Assembly (NCBI GenBank): GCA_965249195.1
Contig: CBDFLM010000015.1
Location: 476,644-540,643 of the forward strand
Length of the DNA: 64,000 nt
From: Longimicrobiales bacterium
Lineage (GTDB): Bacteria > Gemmatimonadota > Gemmatimonadetes > Longimicrobiales > Gaopeijiaceae
Direction: 5' to 3'
Part shown: piece after piece, positions 23,324 to 43,851 of the stretch
How the letters are laid out: every line of letters begins with the position of its first letter
Numbering within the stretch: the first letter of the stretch is position 1
Made by a program: the position numbers and the translations under genes
The notes under the pieces: model-generated
The model's input: only the letters and a program-made list of their open reading frames with translations
The model's database searches: none
What the model was told of the DNA's origin: nothing

Positions 23324-23394
23324 TGCCCCCTGGTGTAAGGGCAGCACAAGGGTCTTTGGAACCCTTGGTCCAGGTTCGAATCCTGGGGGGGCAA
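23324..23394 (+). tRNA. tRNA-Gln (anticodon TTG)
   Basis: Hand-folded cloverleaf. Acceptor stem TGCCCCC / GGGGGCA (U1:A72). D-stem GTGT / GCAC with loop AAGGGCA. Anticodon stem AGGGT / ACCCT with loop CTTTGGA. T-arm CCAGG-TTCGAAT-CCTGG. No encoded CCA. It lies 146 bp downstream of the integrase fragment. Confidence 0.6.
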
Positions 23395-27900: not shown

Positions 27901-30027
27901 ATGACCGATTTGGTGGTGCTTACCGACTGGGTGTGGTTGCTGGGGCTGGGCGGCCTTGGGATCGCGGCCGGAATCTACGGATACGTGAAGAGACAGCCGT
28001 CGGGGTCGGAGACCATGGCGGATCTGTCGGAGCAGATCCACGACGGGGCCATGGCCTTCCTGAGACGCGAGTACACCACGCTCGCAGTCTTCGTTGTCGT
28101 GGTCGCGGCGCTCCTGTTCTTGGCCGTGGGCACCACCGTGGCCATCGCGTACGTGGGCGGGGCCCTCAGCTCGGTGTTTGCGGGGTTCTTCGGAATGAAG
28201 GCCGCAACGCGGGCCAACGTCCGCACGGCGGCGGCCGCCAACGACGTGGGGCAAGGCAAGGCGCTCCGCGTTGCCTTTTTCGGGGCCTCCGTGATGGGGC
28301 TCTCCGTCGCCGCGCTCGGTCTGATCGGCCTTGGTCTGCTCTTCTTGATCTACGCCTCTGCTGCGATTCCGGGGACCGACGACCTGCCGGTTTTCGCGGA
28401 GATCGTCTCGGGCTTCGCGATGGGGGCGAGCTCGATCGCGCTCTTCGCGCGCGTCGGCGGCGGGATCTACACAAAGGCCGCGGACATAGGCGCCGACCTC
28501 GTGGGGAAGGTCGAGGCTGGCATTCCGGAGGACGACCCCCGCAACCCCGCGACCATCGCCGACAACGTGGGTGACAACGTGGGCGACGTCGCGGGAATGG
28601 GCGCCGACATCTTCGAGTCCTATGTCGGCTCGGTCGTGGCTACGATTGCGATTGGCGCCACGGCTCAGGGCCTCGCAGGCGTCAGGATGGAGGCGGTGGT
28701 TCTCCCCATTCTGGCCATAGCCGTCGGTCTATTGGCTTCCCTCGTCGGTATCATGGCCATGAAGGTGCTGGAACGGAGCGACGCGGCGCACGCCCTTCAT
28801 TTCACGACCTTCATCGCGGCCGGGATCTTCCTCGTTACCATGTTCTTCGTCGTGGACAATCTGGGGATGGTGATGGTCGACGGTGCGACCGGGCGGCCTT
28901 ACCCGACCATCGGGCCATGGGTGGCGATGATGGCTGGTACGCTCGTCGGAATCGCCATCGGACTCGTGACACAATACTACACGGCCGCTGGGCCAGTCCG
29001 TAGGATCGCCGACGCCAGCCAGACGGGCTCGGCCACGAATATCATCGCGGGTCTCGCCGTGGGCTTGGAGTCGACGGCCATTCCGGTTCTACTCATCTGC
29101 GCCTCGATATGGACGTCGCACCATTTCGCAGGCCTGTACGGAATCGGCATCGCTGCCGTGGGCATGCTGGCTACGGTGGGCGTGACCATGTCCGTCGATG
29201 CCTACGGCCCGGTGGCGGACAACGCGGGTGGGATCAGCGAGATGAGCGGTCTCGGACCAGAGACCCGTCGGATCACCGACTCCTTGGACGCCATCGGCAA
29301 TACGACTGCCGCGATCGGAAAAGGGTTTGCGATCGGCTCGGCGGCCCTCACCGCGTTGGCTCTGTTCTCAGCCTACGCCACCAAGGTCGGTCTCGCCCAG
29401 ACCGGCATAGACATCGTGAACCCGGACGTGGTGATCGGGATGCTGATCGGTGGCATGCTGCCGTTCTTCGTCAGTGCGCTCACGATGACTGCGGTCGGAA
29501 GGGCGGCTCAGGGCATGGTCGACGAGGTTCGCCGGCAGTTCCGCGAGATCCCGGGAATCATGGATGGAACGGGCAAGCCCGACTCGGCGAGATGTGTGGA
29601 CATCTCAACCCGTGCGGCCTTGCGCGAAATGATCCTCCCCGGCCTCACTGCTATCATCTCGCCCGTGCTGGTGGGGGCCGTTCTGGGGACGGAGGCGCTC
29701 GGCGGCCTGTTGGCTGGGGCGACCGTCACGGGTGTGCTCATGGCGCTCTTCATGGCCAACGCAGGCGGTGCCTGGGACAACGCGAAGAAGTACATCGAGG
29801 CCGGAGCATACGGAGGCAAGGGCTCCGACCCGCACAAGGCCGCGGTAGTTGGGGATACCGTCGGAGATCCTTTCAAAGACACGTCCGGACCGTCCCTCAA
29901 CATCTTGATCAAGCTCATGAGCGTGGTCTCGCTCGTACTCGCGCCCTGGTTCGTACGCGTCCAGGGCCTCCCGGGGGAGGGCGCCACCTCATGGCTGGTC
30001 GAAGTCACGAAGGCCCTCTTCGGCTGA
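27901..30027 (+). CDS. hppA: Membrane-bound H+ / Na+-translocating pyrophosphatase (V-PPase)
   Basis: 708 aa with about 16 TM helices. Motifs [24 protein letters not shown] and [23 protein letters not shown]. Confidence 0.9.
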
Positions 30028-30061
30028 TCCGAGCCCTACGACCCGCTGCGAGGAACTGCCG

Positions 30062-31276
30062 TTGCCGAAGGCCCCCACGTTCGAGAACGCGCTGTCGTTC
30101 GCTCAGGACCTGATTCGCATCCCCTCTCCTCCCGGAGGCGAGGCCGAAGTCGCTGAGCGCGTGCGCCGCGAGATGGAGGAGCTGGGTCTCGACGACGTGC
30201 GCATCGACAGCGCCGGAAACGTTGTGGGGGTTGTAGCGGGGATTGCCGCCGGCCCGACCGTGATGCTGTCCTCCCACCTCGACGTCGTCGCCGAGGGGGA
30301 CCCGGAGGAGTGGGAGCATCCGCCGTTCTCCGGAGCGGTGGACCGCGGTTTCCTGCATGGTCGTGGCGCGATGGACATCAAGGGGCCCCTAGCCATCCAG
30401 ACCTACGGAGCGGCAGCGGTCCGTGGCCGCTCGCCTGGGGACGTGGTCGTCGCCCACACCGTCTTCGAGGAGCGCGGCGGACTCGGCATGAAGCTGCTGT
30501 TGGAATCCGGCGAGGTCGTGCCGCAGGCAGTGGTCATCGGCGAGGCGACACACGGCGACATTTGCACAGGCCACCGGGGAAGAGGGGAAGTCGAGATCAG
30601 GATACGAGGGGTAGCCGGGCACGCCAGCGCGCCGGAGAGGGCTCACAACGCCTTAGACCTCGTGCCCGCCGTGTTGTCGGCTGTGCGAGACCTCGCGTCC
30701 CGCCAGCCCTCGGACCCCACGCTAGGCCCGGCCACCGTCGTCGCTACGAGCGTCGACGTCGCGCCCGTCTCCCGCAACGTGATCCCCGACCGGGCCACGG
30801 TCGCGGTCGACTGGCGGCTACTCCCTGGTCAAGTCGCCGAGGCGCTCTTGTCGGATGTGCGCCAGGCCATCGATGCGAGGGTCGGCGATCCACCCGAAGG
30901 ACTTTCGTTCACGGTCGGGCTCGCGGAGGAGGAGCAGGCCACGTTCACGGGGCGCGTGCAGACGCAAGCACTCTTCACGCCGGGGTTCCTCATGGATGCC
31001 GAGGACTCGATCGTCCGCGCCGCAGCCGGCGCCGTCGGGCGCCGAGGCGGCGCTGGCCACGCCATGATCCGGCCCTGGACCTTCGCGACCGACGGGGGCT
31101 GGACGTCGGGCGTCTTCGGAATCCCGACCCTGGGGTTCGCGCCTGGAGAGGAGCGCTTCGCGCACACGAACCGCGAACGGCTCGACTTGGACGAAGCCCG
31201 CTGGGCCTTGGGCCGGCATCCCTCCCTCATTCTGGCGATTCAAAAAGCCCTGGCAGCCACATTTCTGCGCGACTGA
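30062..31276 (+). CDS. M20-family metallopeptidase (ArgE / DapE / acetylornithine deacetylase-like)
   Basis: LIRIPSPPGGE...SHLDVV...HGRGAMDIKG motifs. Probable TTG start. Confidence 0.75.
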   Translation: MPKAPTFENALSFAQDLIRIPSPPGGEAEVAERVRREMEELGLDDVRIDSAGNVVGVVAGIAAGPTVMLSSHLDVVAEGDPEEWEHPPFSGAVDRGFLHGRGAMDIKGPLAIQTYGAAAVRGRSPGDVVVAHTVFEERGGLGMKLLLESGEVVPQAVVIGEATHGDICTGHRGRGEVEIRIRGVAGHASAPERAHNALDLVPAVLSAVRDLASRQPSDPTLGPATVVATSVDVAPVSRNVIPDRATVAVDWRLLPGQVAEALLSDVRQAIDARVGDPPEGLSFTVGLAEEEQATFTGRVQTQALFTPGFLMDAEDSIVRAAAGAVGRRGGAGHAMIRPWTFATDGGWTSGVFGIPTLGFAPGEERFAHTNRERLDLDEARWALGRHPSLILAIQKALAATFLRD

Positions 31277-31313
31277 CACCGGAGTAGACGCTGAGCTGGC
31301 CGGATGGGGTCGC

Positions 31314-32687
31314 TCAGGCTTCTCCCACCAGGCTCTGCACTGTCTCGGGCCCGGCCGGAGAGGCGTCCATCGGGTGTGTGCCGGCGGTCGCTCCCAGACG
31401 TGGCGGCGAGGTCCCCATCGCCGTCCGGTTCACGGCTCTCAAGACCTCCTCGATATCGAGACCGAGGCTCGCCGCCAGCGTTTCCACGGTGCCCAACGCC
31501 GCCTTCACCCGCTGGTTCACGGCGCCCGCGACGCCGCTCCCGGTGGGGCCGTCCATGACGACTACCCGGTCGATGTCCACGCCCCGCACGGCGTCGACGC
31601 TGATCTCGAGGAGCGAGGGAAGCTTCTCGGCCAGGAACACCGCAAAGGCTTGATCGCCGCCTTCCTGTACCTCGGCATATAGTCGTCGTAGTACCTCGAC
31701 GTGTGCCTTCCCTCGCTCGAGGATCGGCGCGGCCTCTGCCTCGGCGCGTGCTTTCGCCGCTTCGCGCTCGGCGTTGGCGGGCTCGATGACGTCGGCCCTG
31801 AGCCGTTCTTGCTCCCGTTCCACCCTTCGCTGCTCGAGGAGGCGCTGGGCCTCCACCTCCGCCTGCTCGGCCCGCACTTCGGCGGTGCGCTCGGCGATCT
31901 GACCCTCCTGATCGAGCTGCGCCTGCCTCACGCGAAGCTTGTTCTGGGCCTCGGCGATATCGATGTTGGCCTGCGCCTCCAACACCTCGGCACGCTTCCG
32001 CGCTTCCGCCTGGCGCTCGCGGGTGTCGGCGTCGGCGTCCGCTTCGGCGATTTCCGCATCGCGGACCGCTTCGGCGGCCTTCTTGCGACCGATCGCCTCC
32101 AAGTAACCTCGCTCGTCCGAGACGTTCTGGATTTTGAGGACGTCGAGGTGGAACCCGAGGGACGCGAGATCTTCTCCCGCGTCTTCGGCCAGCGCCTTCG
32201 CGAAGCCCAAACGGTCCTCGTTCACTTCCTCGGGAGTCAGGGTGGCCAGGACGCCGCGCAGGTTACCCATCAGGGTGTCTTTGGCCAGGCCCTGGATCTC
32301 CATCTCGGTCTTTCCGAGGAGCCTCTCGACTGCGTTGTTGAAGACAGCGGCGGGAGAGGACGCGATCTTGACGTTGGCGATGGCCTCGACGTTCAGGGGG
32401 ATGTTCCCTTTGGAGAACGCGTTTTGTACGGTGATCTCGATCGGGAAGGTTTCGAGGTTGACGTGCTGCACCGACTCGATGATCGGGATTCTGATGGTGC
32501 GCCCCCCCGTGACGGACCTGTAACCCACATGTGTTCCGTCCGAGAGGAGTCGGTTTCTCCCCGTGATGACCGCCGCACGGTTGGGCGGAACGATGACGAT
32601 CAAGGCGCGCACGGTGGCGACCGCGACCATCGCCACCACGAGGACGACGAAGGCGAGGGTCGCGGGACCCAGAATGAAATCTGGCAT
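31314..32687 (-). CDS. Flotillin-like SPFH / band-7 protein (YqiK / FloA family)
   Basis: N-terminal TM, SPFH domain, then a long Ala / Glu / Arg-rich coiled coil (AEADADADTRERQAEARKRAEVLEAQ...). Confidence 0.8.
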   Translation of the reverse strand: MPDFILGPATLAFVVLVVAMVAVATVRALIVIVPPNRAAVITGRNRLLSDGTHVGYRSVTGGRTIRIPIIESVQHVNLETFPIEITVQNAFSKGNIPLNVEAIANVKIASSPAAVFNNAVERLLGKTEMEIQGLAKDTLMGNLRGVLATLTPEEVNEDRLGFAKALAEDAGEDLASLGFHLDVLKIQNVSDERGYLEAIGRKKAAEAVRDAEIAEADADADTRERQAEARKRAEVLEAQANIDIAEAQNKLRVRQAQLDQEGQIAERTAEVRAEQAEVEAQRLLEQRRVEREQERLRADVIEPANAEREAAKARAEAEAAPILERGKAHVEVLRRLYAEVQEGGDQAFAVFLAEKLPSLLEISVDAVRGVDIDRVVVMDGPTGSGVAGAVNQRVKAALGTVETLAASLGLDIEEVLRAVNRTAMGTSPPRLGATAGTHPMDASPAGPETVQSLVGEA

Positions 32688-32751
32688 TGTCGTAACTCCG
32701 TTTTTCAGGACGTCCTGGCGAGGACGTCTCTTGGCTTCTCATGGCGATCCC

Positions 32752-33387
32752 TCAACCTTCGTCCTCTCCCGGGGAGGCCGTTAGCTCTCCGGCGATCGGT
32801 GCGACCCGGGCGATGCCCTCGTTCATCTCCACGACGACCACCGATCGCCAATCCCCGGCGTCCCCCTCGGTCGAGCCATGCGGAAGGGCTCTCAGCGAGA
32901 CCCGCCGACCTCCGCGCTCTACCGCGACCGTGCCCGGCGCGCGCGTCGAGATCGGCAGCGTGACCACCCCGGGGAGGCCGACGAAGCCGTCATCCTCTTG
33001 TTGGGCGCCGCTCTCGGTAGCGTACAGCCAGTTGAAGAGCGTGGTGACGAGCCCACCCGACAGCACTCCGCCCGCGGTAGCGAATCCGGCTGTCACGAGC
33101 AGCCCCCCGCTCCCGAGAAGGGAGAGGGTGGTGCCTACAGCTCCGAAGCCGAATAGCCCGTAGACGAGGGTCCGAATGGAGAAGATCTTGGCGGCGTGAC
33201 TCGCGTAGCCCTCGACGTGCGCATCCACGTCGCTGCCCACGTCCCCAACGGCGTCTCCACCGAAGTCGCCCCCGATGTGGCCACCATCGAAATCGACATC
33301 TGCGTGGCCTCCGAAGACGTCGCCCAAGAGAGAGACCGCGAGGAAGCCTCCCCCCGCCACCAGGCTGAAGATGTACACGGCCAGCAT
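32752..33387 (-). CDS. NfeD / YqiJ-like membrane protein, flotillin partner
   Basis: Start at MLAVYIFSLVAGGGFLAVSLLGDVFGG. Gly-rich TM segments plus a C-terminal OB-like soluble part. Lies immediately upstream of the flotillin gene. Confidence 0.6.
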   Translation of the reverse strand: MLAVYIFSLVAGGGFLAVSLLGDVFGGHADVDFDGGHIGGDFGGDAVGDVGSDVDAHVEGYASHAAKIFSIRTLVYGLFGFGAVGTTLSLLGSGGLLVTAGFATAGGVLSGGLVTTLFNWLYATESGAQQEDDGFVGLPGVVTLPISTRAPGTVAVERGGRRVSLRALPHGSTEGDAGDWRSVVVVEMNEGIARVAPIAGELTASPGEDEG

Positions 33388-33772
33388 CGAGATCTCCTTC
33401 GACCGGATAGACCCTCGACCGCCACGGTCCGCTCTACGTGGCCCGGCTGCAAGATAGGGCCCCATCGATGCGACAGCGATCCTGGTCCACCGCCACGGTC
33501 CGCTTCCTTGAGGTGTACGGATCCCACGCCCGATTGCTTCGAGCTCCCCTTGGTCCGTCCTCGTGATATGCTTCCACGAGCCTCGAGTGTCGGTTTCGGC
33601 CTACGGTGGACACCGATCCACGCATGTAGGGTGGGCATCGTCCAGTACCGGTGCGGGCCAGCTCGTGGTATACTGGGAGCCGCGAAAGCGACCCCGCTCC
33701 GCCCCCGGACGCAGACCGCCGGAGTCCGCGAGAGGCCGAGCCCGTGCTTACACTACGGACCGAGGGAGCCCC

Positions 33773-34417
33773 ATGCGGCTATACGAGATCGTCTTCATCT
33801 TCGAGGCGTCCGTGACCGAGGACGCCGTTTCGCAGCGCTTAGAGAAATATCTCGAGCTCGCTGTGGGCACCGGTGGCGAAGTCCATGCCGTCGATCATTG
33901 GGGAATGCGACAAATGGCGTACCCCATCGCACGACACAAGTCCGGTTATTACGTCGTGGCGCAGTTCAGCACCGATCCGCAGAACCTTCCCGAGCTCGAG
34001 CGGCTACTCAAGCTCGACAACGACCTTCTGCGCTACCTCATCGTTCTCAGCCAGGGCGAGCCGACGTCCGGGATGTCCGTCGTGACGCAGCGGACGGGTT
34101 CGGGGGAGGCTTCCGTCGAGGAAGACGAGGACGACGATGAAGACGAGGACGACGATGAAGACGAGGATGACGACGATGACAGTCCGCCGGAGTTTTCCGG
34201 GGGTCGAGGCCGGCGCAGGCGCCACGAAGGCCCACCGATCGAGCTCCTCAACTACAAGGACGTCTCGACCATAGCGCGTTTCCTGACCGAGCAGGGAAAG
34301 ATCTTGCCGAAGCGGACGACCAAGGTGACGGCGCGTTTTCAGCGCCAGTTGGGGACGGCGGTCAAGCGAGCACGCTACCTGGCGCTGATACCCTACGTAC
34401 GGGAACACGCCGGTTGA
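33773..34417 (+). CDS. rpsF-rpsR: In-frame fusion of ribosomal protein S6 (rpsF) and ribosomal protein S18 (rpsR) through a poly-acidic linker
   Basis: S6 part: MRLYEIVFIFEASVTEDAVSQRLEKYLELAVGTGGEVHAVDHWGMRQMAYPI...YYVVAQF. Linker: EEDEDDDEDEDDDEDEDDDDD. S18 part: GRGRRRRHEGPPIELLNYKDVSTIARFLTEQGKILPKRTTKVTARFQRQLGTAVKRARYLALIPYV. There is no stop codon and no in-frame ATG / GTG / TTG between the two parts. Confidence 0.7.
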   Translation: MRLYEIVFIFEASVTEDAVSQRLEKYLELAVGTGGEVHAVDHWGMRQMAYPIARHKSGYYVVAQFSTDPQNLPELERLLKLDNDLLRYLIVLSQGEPTSGMSVVTQRTGSGEASVEEDEDDDEDEDDDEDEDDDDDSPPEFSGGRGRRRRHEGPPIELLNYKDVSTIARFLTEQGKILPKRTTKVTARFQRQLGTAVKRARYLALIPYVREHAG

Positions 34418-35463
34418 GCGACGACTCCCGGAGCAGCGGAGCGAAGCTCCCCGCTCGGGCCCCTCCCCAGGGAGGCGAGCCCGTCGACTCCGAGAGCGCA
34501 CCCCAGTCCCTCGACTCGCTGGTGTCGCCGGACGCGCCCGCTCGGTCGCTGGATCGGGATTGGATCAGGCCGCTCGCCCTGTTCGCCGTAGTGTTGGGGC
34601 TCTCCGTCGCACGACCGGGGGCGGTCATCGCCCTGCCTCTGGTCGCGCTCGTCGCATTCCTTCCAACGGGGAATCCGGCGGGTGTTCTCGTCGGCGCGGC
34701 CGCCGCGATTCTCGTGTTCACTGGTTGGGGGGGAGAGGGACTATGGTTCGCCGAAAGGGGTTGGGCGATCGTCCTAAGCGGCTGGTTCCTGACACTTACG
34801 CTGAAATGGCCCGGGACAGGCTTCTTCACCCGCGCAATCGGTTCGGTTCTCGGTGCCATCGCTGTCGTTTCCGCAGGCTTTCTCGCAGATCCCGGCGCTT
34901 GGATCATCCTAGATTGGATGGTGGGGGATCGTATGCTCGCCGGAGTCGAGATGGGTCTCCAGATCATGAGCCGCTTTGGAGGCGAGGGTGGCGGGATCTC
35001 ACCGACTCTGGTTACGACCGTGTACCAGACCGCCGAGCTGCAAGCGCTTGTCTTCCCGGCTCTTCTCTGCCTGGAGTCGATCGCGGCCTTGGGCGTCGCG
35101 TGGTGGATCTACGTGCGACTCGCGCACGGAGCGAGCGGCAGCCTCTCGCCTCTTCGAGAGTTCCGTTTCAACGACCAGTTGATCTGGCTCTTGATCGGTG
35201 GGCTCGTGCTGGTCGTCCTGGACCCTGGTACCCATTGGAGCCGGGCGGGCTCGAACGCGCTGGTGTTCATGTGCGCGCTCTACGCGGTCCGTGGTGCCGG
35301 AGTGGTCGCCTTCATGAGCGGCGGCCTGTCCTTGTTCGGCGGTGCCCTTCTGTTGTTTGGTCTCGTTTTCGTCGCGCCGGTCATCTTCGCAGGGGCGCTG
35401 GTCATCGGGGTTGGCGACACCTGGTTGGACGTCCGGGAACGAGTGCGGCGGCTGACCGCCTGA
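34414..35463 (+). CDS. DUF2232 / YybS-like polytopic membrane protein in the rpsR-rplI interval
   Basis: 349 aa with about 8 TM helices. Its position between rpsR and rplI matches Firmicutes yybS. Confidence 0.5.
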   Translation: MSDDSRSSGAKLPARAPPQGGEPVDSESAPQSLDSLVSPDAPARSLDRDWIRPLALFAVVLGLSVARPGAVIALPLVALVAFLPTGNPAGVLVGAAAAILVFTGWGGEGLWFAERGWAIVLSGWFLTLTLKWPGTGFFTRAIGSVLGAIAVVSAGFLADPGAWIILDWMVGDRMLAGVEMGLQIMSRFGGEGGGISPTLVTTVYQTAELQALVFPALLCLESIAALGVAWWIYVRLAHGASGSLSPLREFRFNDQLIWLLIGGLVLVVLDPGTHWSRAGSNALVFMCALYAVRGAGVVAFMSGGLSLFGGALLLFGLVFVAPVIFAGALVIGVGDTWLDVRERVRRLTA

Positions 35464-35506: not shown

Positions 35507-35962
35507 ATGATGAAATTGATCTTGAAGCGCGAGGTAGAGAACCTGGGTGATGCGGGTGACGTCGTCGACGTGAAGCCCGGATACGCGCGTAACTACCTCA
35601 TCCCGCATGGTTTCGCCTACGAGGCGAGCCCTGCGAACGTGCGTCGTCTCGAAGAAGAGCGACAGAGGTCCGAGACCCGTGGCAAGAAGGGCTATCTCGA
35701 AGCGCGCCGGCGCGCGTCACAGCTCGAAGGACTCAGCTTGACGTTCCACGCCCTGGCTGGGGTGGAAGGAAAGCTCTTCGGCTCCGTGACGAGTGCCGAC
35801 GTCTCCGACAGAGCCAACGAATCTGGACTCGACTTCGAGCTCGACCGACGTCAGATCGTGCTGACCGAGCCCCTGAAACAGCTCGGCGTGTTCAGCGTCC
35901 CCGTCCGCCTTCACGCCGACGTGGAGGTCGAGATCGAGGTCCAGATCGAGCGAGGGGAATAG
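35507..35962 (+). CDS. rplI: 50S ribosomal protein L9
   Basis: MMKLILKREVENLGDAGDVVDVKPGYARNYLIPHGFA. Confidence 0.9.
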   Translation: MMKLILKREVENLGDAGDVVDVKPGYARNYLIPHGFAYEASPANVRRLEEERQRSETRGKKGYLEARRRASQLEGLSLTFHALAGVEGKLFGSVTSADVSDRANESGLDFELDRRQIVLTEPLKQLGVFSVPVRLHADVEVEIEVQIERGE

Positions 35963-36016
35963 GCTACGGCCGGCCTCATGCCAGGCCAATTAGATCCAGG
36001 CGACGGGCCACCTACG

Positions 36017-36346
36017 ATGGTTCGGCGCGCTGCGGAGCTGGCACTCGAGCGCAAGGCGACGGACGTTCTCGCTCTGGATCTCAGGGGACTGTCCACCGCG
36101 ACCGATTTCTTCCTCATCGCGAGCGGATCGTCCGACATCCAGATCCGGGCGATCGTGGACCACGTCATGGACGAGCTGAAGAAGGAGGATGTCCGGCCGG
36201 GTCACGTCGAGGGGAAGATCGGCGGAAGGTGGGCGCTCGTCGACTACATCGACTTCGTCGTGCACGTTTTCCATCCCGCGGCCCGGGAGTTTTACAAGCT
36301 CGAGACGCTCTGGGGGGATGCGCCTGGCTTCGATCTATCGCCGTGA
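36017..36346 (+). CDS. rsfS: Ribosomal silencing factor RsfS (Iojap)
   Basis: From MVRRAAELALERKATDVLALDLRGLSTATDFFLIASGSSDIQIRAIVDHV...WALVDYIDFVVHVF. Confidence 0.8.
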   Translation: MVRRAAELALERKATDVLALDLRGLSTATDFFLIASGSSDIQIRAIVDHVMDELKKEDVRPGHVEGKIGGRWALVDYIDFVVHVFHPAAREFYKLETLWGDAPGFDLSP

Positions 36347-36540: not shown

Positions 36541-37494
36541 ATGACATCCGAACTCCCGGACTGGCAGCCCTACGACCCGAGCGCTCCCGCGGGGATCGCG
36601 CCCTTCGACGATGATTCCCACATGGTCGTATTGCTCGCGACGCCGGCGGCGGAGTCCGGTGGTTGGGCTCACCGGGTGGCGGTCTCGCTGGCACGCCAGT
36701 GGGCCGGAACGGGAGAGCGCGTGTTCTTGGCCGATCTCGGCTTGATGCGTCCCCGCCTGCACCTGGAGCTCGGGCTCCCCAACGAAGAAGGCATGAGCGA
36801 CGCGTTCCTCTACGGCGCCTCGCTCCCGCGCGTTGCCAAGTCGGCGAATGGCGGCTTCTTCTTCGCCTCAGCCGGCACACCCGTGGTCGATGGTCGCCGA
36901 GTGCTGGAAAGTCCGCGCTGGGACCTTTTCGTCCATGGCTTCACGCGAGCCGGGGCGCGCCTGTTGGTCTACATTCCCACCGACGCAGATGGTCGGGATG
37001 TGCCGCTCGGCCGTGCCGACCAAGTCATCCTGCTCGCGACGGAGGCCGAGCGCGCGGACGTCATTGCCGGGGGTGCTGAAGGGGCCGTGGTCGGGCTCTT
37101 CCCCGCTGCGGCGAGTGAGCCTTTGGCGCCGGCGCCGAAGGAAGCCGCCGCCTCCCCGGTGTCCCCGGTGCCGGGTCTCCCCACGACGCCCTTTCCTGCC
37201 CGCCTTCCCGGGCGGGCCTCACCGGGAGCCGGTCGGATCGTGCTCGCGCTCGCGATCGTCGCCGCCGTGGTCTTGGCTCTGCTGAGCGTGTTGGGCCTCA
37301 TCGAGGTGCCGGGCCTCTCCGGGGCTCCCACGCCCCCCACCGTGACAGACGTGGCGGTAGCTTCGTCGATCCCCGTGCCTTGGTCGTCGACCCGTGCGAT
37401 CGGAGCTGATATGGTCGGGTCAGGGTCGTTCACAGATGACGTCGCAGCCTCGTGGCGTACCGAGTCGCCATCCGAGTACGCGCCACCCGAATGA
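36541..37494 (+). CDS. Hypothetical protein with a degenerate ParA / MinD-like P-loop domain (Walker A replaced by SGGWAHRV), a Pro-rich linker and a C-terminal TM
   Basis: VVLLATPAAESGGWAHRVAVSLARQWAGTGERVFLADLGL resembles a deviant Walker-A ATPase but lacks the GKT Lys / Thr. Confidence 0.4.
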   Translation: MTSELPDWQPYDPSAPAGIAPFDDDSHMVVLLATPAAESGGWAHRVAVSLARQWAGTGERVFLADLGLMRPRLHLELGLPNEEGMSDAFLYGASLPRVAKSANGGFFFASAGTPVVDGRRVLESPRWDLFVHGFTRAGARLLVYIPTDADGRDVPLGRADQVILLATEAERADVIAGGAEGAVVGLFPAAASEPLAPAPKEAAASPVSPVPGLPTTPFPARLPGRASPGAGRIVLALAIVAAVVLALLSVLGLIEVPGLSGAPTPPTVTDVAVASSIPVPWSSTRAIGADMVGSGSFTDDVAASWRTESPSEYAPPE

Positions 37495-40400
37495 AGCTCA
37501 GATCACTGCGCGTCCACGGCTTCAAATCCTTCGCTGACCCCACCGAAATCCAGTTCCATCACGGTATCACCACGATCGTCGGTCCCAACGGGTGCGGGAA
37601 GTCGAACATCAGCGATGCGATCCGCTGGGTCCTGGGCGAGCAGCGTCCAACGGCTATCCGGGGTGCGCGGATGGAGGAGGCCATCTTCCAGGGGAGCGTG
37701 AATCGCCGTCCCGTAGGTCGTGGGTCCGTCACGATGGTCGTGAGCAACGAGGACGGATCATTGCCGGTGCCGTTCGAGGAAGTCGAAATCGGTCGACGGG
37801 TCTTCCGCGACGGCGGGAGTGACTATTCGATCAATCGAGCGGTGGTCCGTCTCCGCGACGTCCTCGACCTCGTTCGAGACACTGGACTCGGGGCCAACGC
37901 ATACAACGTTCTCGAGAACCGGATGATCGAAGCGATCCTGTCCGATCGCGCTGAGGAGCGACGAGCGCTCTTCGAGGAGGCCGCGGGAATCGGCAAATAC
38001 AAGGATCGGCGTCGGTCCGCGTCGCGACGTTTAGAGCGAGCGGAGACCGACCTGCAGCGGCTCGAGGACCTGATCGCGGAGGTGGGGTCGAAGGTCCGCT
38101 CATTGGCCCGACAGAAGGGCAAGGCCGAGCGGTTCGCGAGCCTTCGATCTCGCCGCCTGTCGCTCGAGATCGCTGTGGTAGGGCATCAGCTCGAAGCGCT
38201 CGGTGACCGAGTGGCGGGCCTGGAAAAGGAGCTCCAGGGCGGAAGAGTGACGGGCGAAGGCATGATCGCCGAGGCCCGCACAGCGGAGGCCCGCCACGAG
38301 GCGTTGCGCTTGGAACAGGTGGAGCTAGAGAAATCCCGCGCCCGGGTGGCACTTGAGCTCGACACCGTGCGAGGTCAGCTCACTCGATGGGAGAAGGACC
38401 TTGCGGTCGCAGCCGAGCGGGCGGCACACGCGGTGCGCCGCCTGGGCCAAATCGAAGGCGAGAGAGAGGAAGCGAGCGCTAAATCTGAGGCTTTCACCAC
38501 GCAGGCCGAGGACCTGGACGAAGACATGCGGGTGCGGCTCGCCGAGCTCGCTGAGGCCGGACTGCAGCTCGAGGCGAAGCGCGCCCGCTCCGAAGAGCTG
38601 CGAGCTCTGGCTTCCACCGCTCGACGCGCTCTCGACTCGGTCGACGAGCGGGAGCGCGAGATCGCGCGGCGGGCCGCGCAGCTGGAGGGAGACGCCGAGG
38701 CAGCCCGGTCCCAGGCAGCCGAGCTGGGGCGCCGACAGGGGCTCTTGTCCGGAGAGTTGGAGTCGGCTTCGGAAGCGCTCACCGACCTAGAGACGCAGGG
38801 AGACCTGTTCACGGGCCGAATGCAGACGCTGGACGGGTCGGTGTCCACGGCGCGCGAGACCCTCGCGAGAGCCGAGAAGGAGCTGCTTCGCCTGAGGTCC
38901 GAGCTGGATGCAGCGAGAATGGCTGAGATTGACTCGCACGACGTCGCATCGTCCCTCGGAGCCCGCATCACCGCACTCGAGGGGATGGCTCGCGACTCGG
39001 AAGGCATGGAGCCGGCAGTCAGGGCGGCGTCGAGCCTCGGCGACGTCGGAGTTCTGGGCATTCTCTCACAGTTCATCGAGGCTCCGGCGGATCTCTCGCG
39101 GGCCGTGCAGAGCTTCCTCGGCCCGCTCGGGCTGGCTCTCGTCGTGCGCGACAGCGAGACGGCAGATCGGGTCCGCCGCTGGTTCCATGGGCACTGGGAA
39201 GGAGGCGGTGGGCTCATTGTGCTGCCCCTCGACCGGGTTCCGCAGGAAGACCAGAGCGGTCCCCTCCTAGGCGCGGTATCGGCTCTTGGCGACGGAGCGC
39301 CTTGGGTACGGGCGCTATTGAGTGGGGCGGAGCTCGTCGAGGAGGATGAGCTTCTGCTCGGCGACGGACGTGCCACGGTCCGGGTCACGCCCAGTGGGTC
39401 GTGGACGGACGCACGGGGCATCGTGAGGATGGGAACGCCGACCGGCTCCTCGGGCATGCTCGAGCGCGAGGCACGCCTCCAGTCGCTCCGTGCCGACGCG
39501 AAAGCCGCTGAATCCCGAGCTGCACAGGCCCGAAGTGAGCGCGAGCGCCTCCGTGAACGGGTTGATGAAGCTGCGATCTCCGTGGAGAAGGCGAGGGCCG
39601 CGTACCACGACGCGGACGAGACGCACCGCGCCGTGCGCGCGGACCTCGTGGAGCAGGTCGACAGAGCTGCCCGCATGGGTCGTCATCGGGAAGACGTGGC
39701 ACGTCAGATCGAGGGAACCAAGGCGGCCCGCTCGCGGGCTGATGCCCGCGCAAGAACGGCTCTAAAGGAGCGTGCGTCCCTCCAGAAGGAGGAAGCGGTC
39801 CTGGGCGAGGAGCTACGGACGGCGAGGGGAGCGCTCGATGGCGCCGAACAGAACTGGGAAGTCGCTCGCGCGGAAGAATCCGCCCTCGCGGTGCGTGTAG
39901 CCCGGCTGGAAGGAGAAGCTGAGAGACTGGGCGAGCGGCTGGAATCGGTTCGCGAGCAGGCCGCGGCAGCGCGCGGCAGGTTGCAGGTGCTCGACAATGA
40001 GGAGGACGAGCTGCGTACCGACCTTCGCGACGCGCGTGCCCTCGAAGCGGAAGGATCCGAGGCGCTGGAGTCGCTCTTCGCGCGCCGGGACGTGGCCGAG
40101 CAGGCGGTACGGGAGCGCCAAGAGGCGGTCGATCGCGTCGCCGATGCCCTTCGCGCTGCGGAATCGAGCCTGAGATCCGCTCGGCACGCGGAACGTGAGG
40201 CGACCGATGCGCGCCATCGGCTCGAGCTCGAGCTCCAAGAGACCCGGGGTCGCATCGATCGAATTCGTGAACGCCTCGAGGGCGAGTGGGGGCGGCCGTT
40301 GGAGGACCTGCTCGACCACTCCGAGCCATTCGAGGAGGAGATGACCCGAGAAGAGATGCGCGAGGAACTGGAGGAGATCGTGCGCAAGCTCGAGCGAATC

Positions 40401-41024
40401 GGCCCCGTGAACATGCTCGCCGTTGAGGAGCACGAGGAGGAGAGCCGACGCCTGACGTTTCTGCGTGACCAGCTCGGCGACCTCGTCGAGGCACGTAGCG
40501 ACCTCCGTGCCGCCATCCGGCGCATCGACCAGACCGCGACCGAGCTGTTCATGGAGACCTTCGAGAGAATCCGTGAGAATTTCCGCTCGATCCACCGTCG
40601 CCTTTTCGAGGGCGGCGAGGCCGACATCTGGCTCGGGGAGGAAGGCGACCCCTTGGAGTCACCTATCGAGATTCATGCTTCGCCGAGAGGAAAAAAGACT
40701 CAGCGAATTCATCTTCTTTCGGGGGGTGAACGGGCGCTGACTGCGCTCTCGCTTCTGTTCGCGATCTATCTGGTCAAGCCTAGCCCGTTCTGTGTGCTGG
40801 ACGAAGTCGACGCTCCCCTCGACGAGAACAACATCGGCCGCTTCATCAGGCTGCTCGACGAGTTCAAGGAGCAAACGCAGTTCATCCTAATCACGCACAA
40901 CCCTCGCACGATCGAAGCTGCCGACTGGATCTACGGTGTGACGATGGAAGAGCCGGGCGTGAGCAGTGTCGTGGGTGTTCAGCTCGAGGATGCGCTCGAA
41001 CGGGCGCGCGGCTCAGCTGCTTGA
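37491..41024 (+). CDS. smc: Chromosome segregation protein SMC
   Basis: Start [39 protein letters not shown] (Walker A). Long coiled coils, a hinge, and C-terminal [17 protein letters not shown]...[10 protein letters not shown]. Confidence 0.9.
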   Translation: [1177 protein letters not shown]

Positions 41025-43596: not shown

Positions 43597-43851
43597 TCTT
43601 GGCGGATACCCGCGGCGGGGCGTCGATCGGTTGACCCTGGTAAGTTCCACGCGTAGCTTCGGAGCGTGCCCCAGGTCCGCAGAGCGAGAGCCCACGAATC
43701 CCGTCAGGACCCCGCAGGTAGCAGCGGTAAGTGCGGTGATCGTAGCTGCGGGTTGCCTGGGGCATTCTTCTTGCTGGTCGGCGTGAAGCTCCGTCATCGG
43801 GCACTCCGCACGCGCACGGCCCCGACCTCCTGACCGCTGCCGCCCGAGCTC

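Follow-up and report, generated by a model that had tools for sequence, protein, structure and literature searches.

Can S6 and S18, two well-studied ribosomal proteins that must pair before they bind ribosomal RNA (rRNA), be supplied to the cell as a single chain? The question is raised by a 64,000-nucleotide (nt) stretch of DNA from a Longimicrobiales bacterium of the phylum Gemmatimonadota (contig CBDFLM010000015.1, forward-strand positions 476,644 to 540,643). We refer to this whole stretch as the window, and all coordinates are window positions unless a related locus is named. An initial annotation, made from the letters of the sequence, had read rpsF and rpsR, the genes for S6 and S18, as one open reading frame (ORF) joined by a linker of 21 Asp/Glu (D/E) residues. 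Our analysis bears this out, and we consider it likely that the locus is a functional rpsF::rpsR gene whose product is one ~24-kDa bS6-tether-bS18 chain that serves as both the S6 and the S18 of the cell, with assembly as a single chain and probable autorepression through the leader of its own message.

One open reading frame for S6 and S18

The fused ORF runs from an ATG at 33773 to a TGA at 34415-34417, and its product of 214 amino acids (aa) has a calculated mass of 24.3 kDa. The coding sequence and its parts are as follows:

33773-34417, plus strand: fused rpsF::rpsR coding sequence, 214 codons plus the TGA
33773-34048, plus strand: S6 module, aa 1-92, from Pfam and TIGR matches, AlphaFold2 (AF2) and Foldseek
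34049-34078, plus strand: clade-specific motif SQGEPTSGMS at the S6 end, aa 93-102, consensus NEGEPTSGxS, from an alignment of 62 fused sequences
34079-34180, plus strand: disordered tether, aa 103-136, including the D/E run and a tandem repeat, from AF2, the composition of relatives and a repeat search
34181-34234, plus strand: junction motif SPPEFSGGRGRRRRHEGP, aa 137-154, replacing the basic N-terminal arm of S18 and without an initiator Met, from the 62-sequence alignment
34235-34414, plus strand: S18 core, aa 155-214, including K198-R199-A200-R201, from Pfam, TIGR, the alignment and sequence matches in the PDB

Both domains score well above curated cut-offs. The S6 module is matched by Pfam Ribosomal_S6 (PF01250; aa 4-91, E=1.7e-25, 89.5 bits against a cut-off of 27) and by the NCBIfam equivalog TIGR00166 (aa 1-91, 86.6 bits against 42.9), and the S18 module by Pfam Ribosomal_S18 (PF01084; aa 159-206, E=6.4e-19, 68.2 bits against 21) and by the equivalog TIGR00165 (aa 155-210, 75.8 bits against 38.75). 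The statement of the initial annotation that S18 is not readable in the other frames agrees with a tblastn search of the window, which found S18 once, in the frame of S6; no second S6 and no ssb were found in the window by the same search. AF2, run on the 62-sequence alignment, modelled the S6 module (aa 1-90) with values of the predicted local distance difference test (pLDDT) of 77-93, and a Foldseek comparison of the fold with the PDB returned S6 chains (E=2.4e-11, target TM-score 0.88, root-mean-square deviation 1.2 Å).

The part of the protein that would touch RNA is intact. K198, R199, A200 and R201 are the equivalents of K60, R61, A62 and R63 of E. coli S18, of which K60 and R63 touch the conserved CC (C719/C720) of 16S rRNA according to two reports (PMC4647458, PMC3854524). 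Among the 62 aligned fused sequences, K198, A200 and R201 are invariant and R199 is at least 90% conserved, and membership of the module in bS18 is backed by the predicted CC-contact residues K198 and R201 being invariant in 62 of 62. The S18 module of the fused clade keeps both a basic N-terminal arm and the K-R-A-R RNA-contact motif. The alignment has 61 invariant columns in all, some in the S6 fold, some in the S18 core and some in the two motifs that flank the tether.

How completely each protein is represented can be judged from its alignment with proteins of known structure. The E. coli S6 chain (135 aa, described as the 'fully modified isoform') aligns with query residues 1-131, and its acidic tail overlies the linker, the two having already been likened in the initial annotation. 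Query residues 143-212 align with S18 chains; for the chains of S. aureus and B. subtilis the match begins at query residue 142-145, opposite chain residues 6-8. The complete S18 module takes up aa ~137-214 of the fused protein. All of the 60 best of 127 PDB sequence matches are separate S6 or S18 chains, and none of these 60 spans both modules. Because of the extents of these alignments, the protein reads as two complete proteins in head-to-tail order, first S6 including its acidic tail and then S18, which retains its basic arm but has no initiator Met.

The linker itself is the D/E run EEDEDDDEDEDDDEDEDDDDD, which is exactly 21 residues long as first described (aa 116-136, nt 34118-34180) and is coded by an 18-nt tandem repeat present in 3.2 copies (34117-34173). 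AF2 gives aa 95-162 a pLDDT of less than 50. Among 155 fused relatives the length of the tether ranges over 27-169 aa (median 31), D and E make up a median of 59% of it, its net charge has a median of -16, and S18 is in frame in all 155 despite this variation in length. Many independent length changes have thus occurred in multiples of three, and we therefore regard them as a signature of selection for a continuous frame. On either side of the tether the sequence is far more constrained: G95, E96, P97, G100 and S102 are invariant at the S6 end, and the consensus SPPEFSGGRGRRRRxEGP opens the S18 side in the fused clade, with P138, P139, R145, G146, R147-R149, G153 and P154 invariant across the 62 sequences.

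The tethers of some relatives depart from a plain acidic run. Four loci labelled Longimicrobiales (L037, L038, L039 and L040) have tethers of 94-169 residues that are rich in Ala/Gly/Asp/Glu rather than pure D/E, within proteins that total 270-345 aa; the longest, of 169 residues and Ala/Gly/Asp-rich, belongs to L038 (5275-6312). At another locus (L004, 221-862) the tether is basic and non-acidic (ILGERRHRTPRAHDGPGGHHRRHGEDE...), which may reflect either a local double frameshift in the assembly or a real exception to acidity. Programmed frameshifting in the GAT-GAA repeat, where TGA codons occur out of frame, was considered as well and rejected, since these stops follow trivially from Asp and Glu codons and since frameshifting gives no way to start S18.

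In E. coli S6 the acidic tail is a free end to which glutamates are added post-translationally by RimK. That tail corresponds to the tether here, but the acidic run of the fused protein is encoded in the genome, is fixed at either end and can grow to 169 aa. Acidic stretches are found in other S6 proteins as well: the unfused S6 of a Gemmatimonadaceae locus described below (L043) also ends in an acidic tail, EEDEDDDE, and a distant Myxococcales S6 (L044) has the same acidic stretch in an internal position. Set beside the canonical heterodimer of bS6 and bS18 (E. coli, T. thermophilus; PDB 1G1X, 7K00), the fused protein matches in both domains by sequence and in S6 also by fold, the K-R-A-R of S18 is kept, rpsF comes first in the operon and rplI is nearby. 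The differences are that there is one polypeptide instead of two, that neither ssb nor priB lies between the modules, and that the N-terminal arm of S18 is replaced by the clade motif SPPEFSGGRGRRRR, which has no Met and no Cys.

Distribution and origin of the fusion

A search of related genomes for the same fusion, proposed with the initial annotation as a check, found it widely. A homologue search over 5.8 billion proteins returned 1686 relatives, and both Pfam domains are present in 120 of the best 120 of these (62-75% identity, 206-221 aa); the few that are named among them are called '30S ribosomal protein S6' and come from Gemmatimonadota, Gemmatimonadales or Longimicrobiales. A genome scan that took one genome per species gave 44 loci (L001-L044) with flanks of ~12 kb, and the same fused ORF is present in about 40 of the 44. 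The fused Gemmatimonadota loci include chromosome-level metagenome-assembled genomes and records titled complete chromosomes (OZ242973.1, OZ250165.1, OY730414.1).

One of the unfused loci offers a direct comparison. L043 (5998-6587, labelled Gemmatimonadaceae) has separate rpsF and rpsR genes, with rpsF ending in ...EEDEDDDE-TGA and overlapping the start of rpsR in an ATGA. When the S6 of this locus was used as the query, 920 relatives were found at E<=1e-10, and the 120 of these that were listed are mostly ~121 aa long, carry the S6 domain only and come from Gemmatimonadaceae where they are named. Judged from these sequences, the fusion is not phylum-wide but is the rule within a large clade of the Gemmatimonadota. 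The initial description of the fusion as unusual is therefore right for bacteria overall and wrong for this clade.

The unfused Gemmatimonadaceae share with the fused clade the phylum, an S18 core that is 63% identical and the gene order rpsF, rpsR, DUF2232-like membrane gene and rplI. They differ in having two genes with the ATGA overlap and, in L043, an S6 module that is only about 39% identical. Cys residues occur at the N-terminus of the L043 S18 (TCPFC), which starts with MKMMRRPTKTCPFC, but are entirely missing from the fused S18 module, and this may be a difference between a zinc-type and a zinc-free S18.

How did the fusion arise? In a rough neighbour-joining tree of the S6 module, built without bootstrap, all Gemmatimonadota fusions form one clade that is sister to the unfused group. 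Because of this tree and of the shared junction motifs, the data point to a single fusion event in the Gemmatimonadota clade. The fusion most likely arose by loss of the stop/start overlap between two adjacent and translationally coupled genes, and the ATGA overlap of the unfused sister is a plausible precursor state. One fused S6-S18 protein of 199 aa (P0129) lacks the SPPEF junction motif and groups with the unfused Gemmatimonadaceae S6 clade in the same tree; given this placement, fusion may also have been followed by a later fission.

Fusions are found outside this clade as well. P0170, from L045 (3001-3618) on a 2.9-Mb contig (ENA ERZ21831104), is a fused S6-S18 protein of 205 aa (34% identical) from an unrelated bacterium, and its gene lies in the order pth, rpsF::rpsR, rplI and dnaB. 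A homologue search with P0170 found a single fused relative, 47% identical. We regard at least this one fusion outside the Gemmatimonadota clade as real, and since P0170 lies on a 2.9-Mb contig and has a fused relative, the fusion event has happened more than once. In a representative search, fused S6-S18 proteins of low identity were scattered in other lineages (proteobacteria-like and Bacteroidota-like by eye), and some of these are perhaps gene-calling artefacts.

A related matter is the group of public 'S18-only' proteins that lie nearest to the S18 module (P0133, P0154, P0145 and others). These look like fragments or frame-shifted calls of fused genes. They begin with sequences such as MTMTMMTT, which looks like the acidic repeat translated in another frame, with leader residues that are unrelated, or at the Met of RRRRMEGP.

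The 5' leader and the gene neighbourhood

Two elements are found immediately upstream of the fused gene:

33669-33674, plus strand: -10-like hexamer TATACT, preceded by TGG (extended -10 type), inferred from an alignment of 34 upstream regions
33690-33772, plus strand: conserved 5' leader of the fused gene, 83 nt, from the leader alignment, folds and a covariance model

The leader reaches as far as the ATG and is conserved in the fused clade, with counterparts at the corresponding place among L001-L041. In its proposed structure, helix H1 pairs 33692-33695 with 33764-33767 (CCCC/GGGA) and includes the Shine-Dalgarno sequence, GAGGGAG at 33762-33768. Helix H2 pairs 33696-33703 with 33734-33741 and is a hairpin of variable length, GCUCCRCC...GGYGGRGC, while H3 pairs 33742-33745 with 33755-33758 in a short hairpin, CCGU...ACGG. 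The ACCGA at 33759-33763 is unpaired and includes a CC that precedes the Shine-Dalgarno sequence by 2-3 nt and never varies (C71 and C72 of the leader alignment); the next base is mostly G/A, and after a further 1-2 nt an invariant GGG follows.

Several lines of evidence bear on this structure. In the alignment 95.1% of cells are paired, compared with at most 51% when the partners are slid. Three pairs of H2 have changed on both sides, one of them being GC in 23 cases, AU in 9, UA in 3 and GU in 2, and 95.9% of the H2 cells are paired. Minimum free energy folds of single sequences give the three-helix junction in most loci, and in most loci they also predict CCC/GGG pairing over the Shine-Dalgarno sequence, in columns that never vary. 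A covariance model built from the leader alignment (R1) yields exactly one match per locus, always abutting the start codon, with the next best match in 527 kb at 17.3 bits, and it recovers L038, which was outside the training alignment, at 40.6 bits. R1 gives no match in the unfused L043, the fused L018 and the distant L044 and L045. Upstream of rpsF, L043 has a simpler CCCGCUCC...GGGAGG element. The fused protein of L018 (5800-6642) starts with MTAYEIV.

The rpsF_leader, or S6:S18 complex-binding motif, is described in three reports as a hairpin and a bulge in which a conserved CC(R) precedes the Shine-Dalgarno sequence by 2-3 nt, with the Shine-Dalgarno sequence itself in a closing stem, and as a mimic of C719/C720 of 16S rRNA (Matelska 2013, PMC3854524; Fu 2014, PMC3895269; Babina 2015, PMC4647458). 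The leader here is alike in its position directly before rpsF, its covarying hairpin of variable length and its unpaired and conserved CC(R), and a predicted closing stem would likewise place the Shine-Dalgarno sequence in its 3' strand. It differs in the extra short hairpin CCGU...ACGG, which makes a three-helix junction, and in having no Rfam match. By its sequence, the leader fits the published S6:S18 autoregulatory motif. According to Matelska et al. (PMC3854524), rpsR directly after rpsF correlates with absence of the motif; the fused clade is a counter-example, as rpsF and rpsR are fused and yet the motif is present.

The putative -10 hexamer lies ~16 nt upstream of the conserved leader. 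Over the 34 upstream regions its consensus is GCTATATT, with the T and the final T invariant and the A at least 90% conserved. A strict sigma-70 promoter scan found no site.

Downstream, three genes follow the fused gene:

34414-35463, plus strand: membrane protein with a weak DUF2232 match (Pfam PF09991, E=2.1e-5, below the gathering score)
35507-35962, plus strand: rplI (ribosomal protein L9), from Pfam L9_N and L9_C
35978-36346, plus strand: rsfS (ribosomal silencing factor), from Pfam RsfS (E=3.9e-30)

The operon context, with rplI and rsfS downstream, is canonical. The first of the three proteins is multi-pass and has a possible TTG start that overlaps the TGA of the fused gene, and in the unfused L043 a DUF2232-like gene occupies the same position after rpsR. 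An SMC protein is encoded downstream of rsfS. The chromosome around these genes is ordinary (27901-33465 and 37452-41024), with an H+-pyrophosphatase and an M20 peptidase, and in the neighbourhood an SPFH/Band-7 protein on the minus strand adjoins a Gly-rich membrane ORF without a Pfam match. At the gathering score no ribosomal leader was matched by Rfam anywhere in the window, where the only matches were a tRNA (23324-23394, 60.3 bits) and a bacterial small SRP RNA (43669-43765, 40.1 bits against 40), and the leader was hence defined de novo.

One chain or two proteins

How might the fused protein work? No stop codon ends S6, and every ribosome that makes S6 must therefore read on into S18. 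After the fusion, the acidic C-terminal tail of S6 would have become a tether to the basic N-terminal arm of S18. The chain would remain uncleaved and would be the only S6 and the only S18 in the cell. Its two modules would dock on each other, and the docked chain, like the heterodimer of separate S6 and S18, would join the central domain of 16S rRNA at the h22/h23a/h23b junction once S15 is in place, with the disordered acidic loop projecting from the 30S platform. Such a fusion would fix a 1:1 stoichiometry and remove the bimolecular step of dimerisation, which would become intramolecular. Excess protein would probably repress its own translation by binding the leader, where the unpaired CC would mimic the rRNA site and the closing stem would hold the Shine-Dalgarno sequence.

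We also entertain a bolder version of this scheme, although we regard it as doubtful. The acidic loop and the conserved flanking motifs may have gained a function of their own on the 30S platform (e.g., in anti-Shine-Dalgarno/mRNA exit access or in bS1 or bS21 binding), tuned by lineage-specific expansion to a 169-residue Ala/Gly/Asp-rich 'brush', and the chain may be the first natural one-protein repressor of an rpsF leader.

Several points weigh against the single-chain scheme or parts of it. AF2 modelled the S18 module with a pLDDT of only 52-60 and gave no confident arrangement of S6 relative to S18. In the leader, H1 and H3 are invariant and so have no support from covariation, which leaves them neither supported nor refuted, and the fused L018 is without the leader motif, having neither a CCCGC nor a match to R1. 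Over 33300-33850 no Rfam 15 family matched at E<=10 except for a chance match at E=0.52; because of this, we say that the leader would work like the S6:S18 motif and claim membership in it only in part. The search for additional rpsF or rpsR genes was confined to the window and ~12 kb around the related loci. Finally, post-translational cleavage in or next to the tether could in principle occur, and the conserved junction motifs could be processing sites.

This last point leads to an alternative that we consider unlikely, namely that the ORF is fused and two proteins are nevertheless present in the cell, either because the chain is cut in or beside the tether or because S18 is additionally made from an internal start. 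It is true that NEGEPTSGxS and SPPEFSGGRGRRRRxEGP are conserved more than a passive tether needs, but they could equally well be contact surfaces for rRNA or protein, and neither S6 nor S18 has a known protease or processing signal. A precedent for cleavage exists in the eukaryotic ubiquitin-ribosomal protein fusions (Ub-eS31 and Ub-eL40), which are cleaved and in which the partner is not a ribosomal protein. The two cases are alike in that a ribosomal protein is coded as a natural translational fusion, and they differ in that both partners here are neighbouring ribosomal proteins and no cleavage is known.

The other route would be internal initiation. The claim of the initial annotation that S18 has no in-frame ATG, GTG or TTG from which to start holds for codons 105-177, which contain none of the three, but needs correcting upstream, where an ATG at codon 101 (nt 34073) and a GTG at codon 104 (nt 34082) lie in frame between the S6 fold and the acidic run. 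These two codons could serve the alternative, as could the Met of RRRR-M-EGP, which is present in 37 of 160 relatives. However, the x of RRRRx is H, V, I, A or F in the other 123 (His in the window), and residue 101, although Met in 100 of the 155 fused relatives, is A, Q, H, E, D, R or S in 30, so that a conserved start is excluded at both positions. Nothing ahead of codon 101 resembles a Shine-Dalgarno sequence, and internal initiation would not free S6, as no stop ends it. Since residue 101 is not conserved and S6 lacks a stop, internal starts do not rescue a separate S18, and a single continuous chain is the reading that we prefer.

Another possibility, which we hold to be very improbable, is that the fused gene is a redundant or degenerating copy and that the working S6 and S18 are coded separately elsewhere. 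rpsR is listed among duplicated ribosomal protein genes and S18 paralogues are known in some bacteria (PMC2837039), and for the genome in question the search took in the 64 kb of the window. Nonetheless, a separate rpsR, which the initial annotation had named as an observation that would overturn its reading, was sought in the window and in the ~12-kb flanks of the 44 related loci, and no second S18 and no second S6 were found there. Strong purifying selection acts on both modules, as the 61 invariant columns and the intact RNA-contact residues attest, the gene occupies its canonical place, preceded by a conserved leader and followed by rplI, and the nearest 'S18-only' entries have the look of fragments or frame-shifted calls noted above. 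A sequencing or assembly artefact, in which a frameshift or a collapsed GAC/GAG-rich repeat merged two genes, is effectively refuted by the comparative data: the 18-nt tandem repeat is an error-prone type of sequence, some database entries show frame errors at the tether and that of L004 is non-acidic, but more than 150 sequences, assembled independently in many projects and including records titled complete chromosomes, contain the fusion. Their tethers differ in length and sequence and are always in frame, codons 105 to 177 contain no remnant of a stop or start, and the S18 N-terminal arm has a clade-specific sequence without Met.

A literature search of limited coverage found no description of a natural S6-S18 fusion, and in the three rpsF-leader papers the word 'fusion' refers to lacZ reporters only. 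The components of the system are ordinary; the novelty, on the comparisons made here, lies in their covalent joining, in the fixation of this arrangement within a large clade, in a tether that is extremely plastic and in a leader that has been kept. To a ribosome specialist this may be notable rather than startling, as adjacent genes for the partners of an obligate heterodimer are classic candidates for fusion. There is also a practical side, in that the listed fused proteins are annotated only as 'S6' in public databases, so that S18 may seem to be missing when genomes from the fused clade are analysed by marker genes or for completeness.

A lineage that has welded S6 to S18 by way of the S6 tail is a natural experiment, and it opens a way to study how S6 and S18 assemble and what the unexplained acidic S6 tail does. 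As a clade marker, the fusion tells two large groups of Gemmatimonadota apart, and the fused protein offers a single-chain reagent for studies of assembly and of leader binding. Its presence throughout a large clade would mean that the C-terminus of S6 and the N-terminus of S18 can be tethered without harm to the ribosome.

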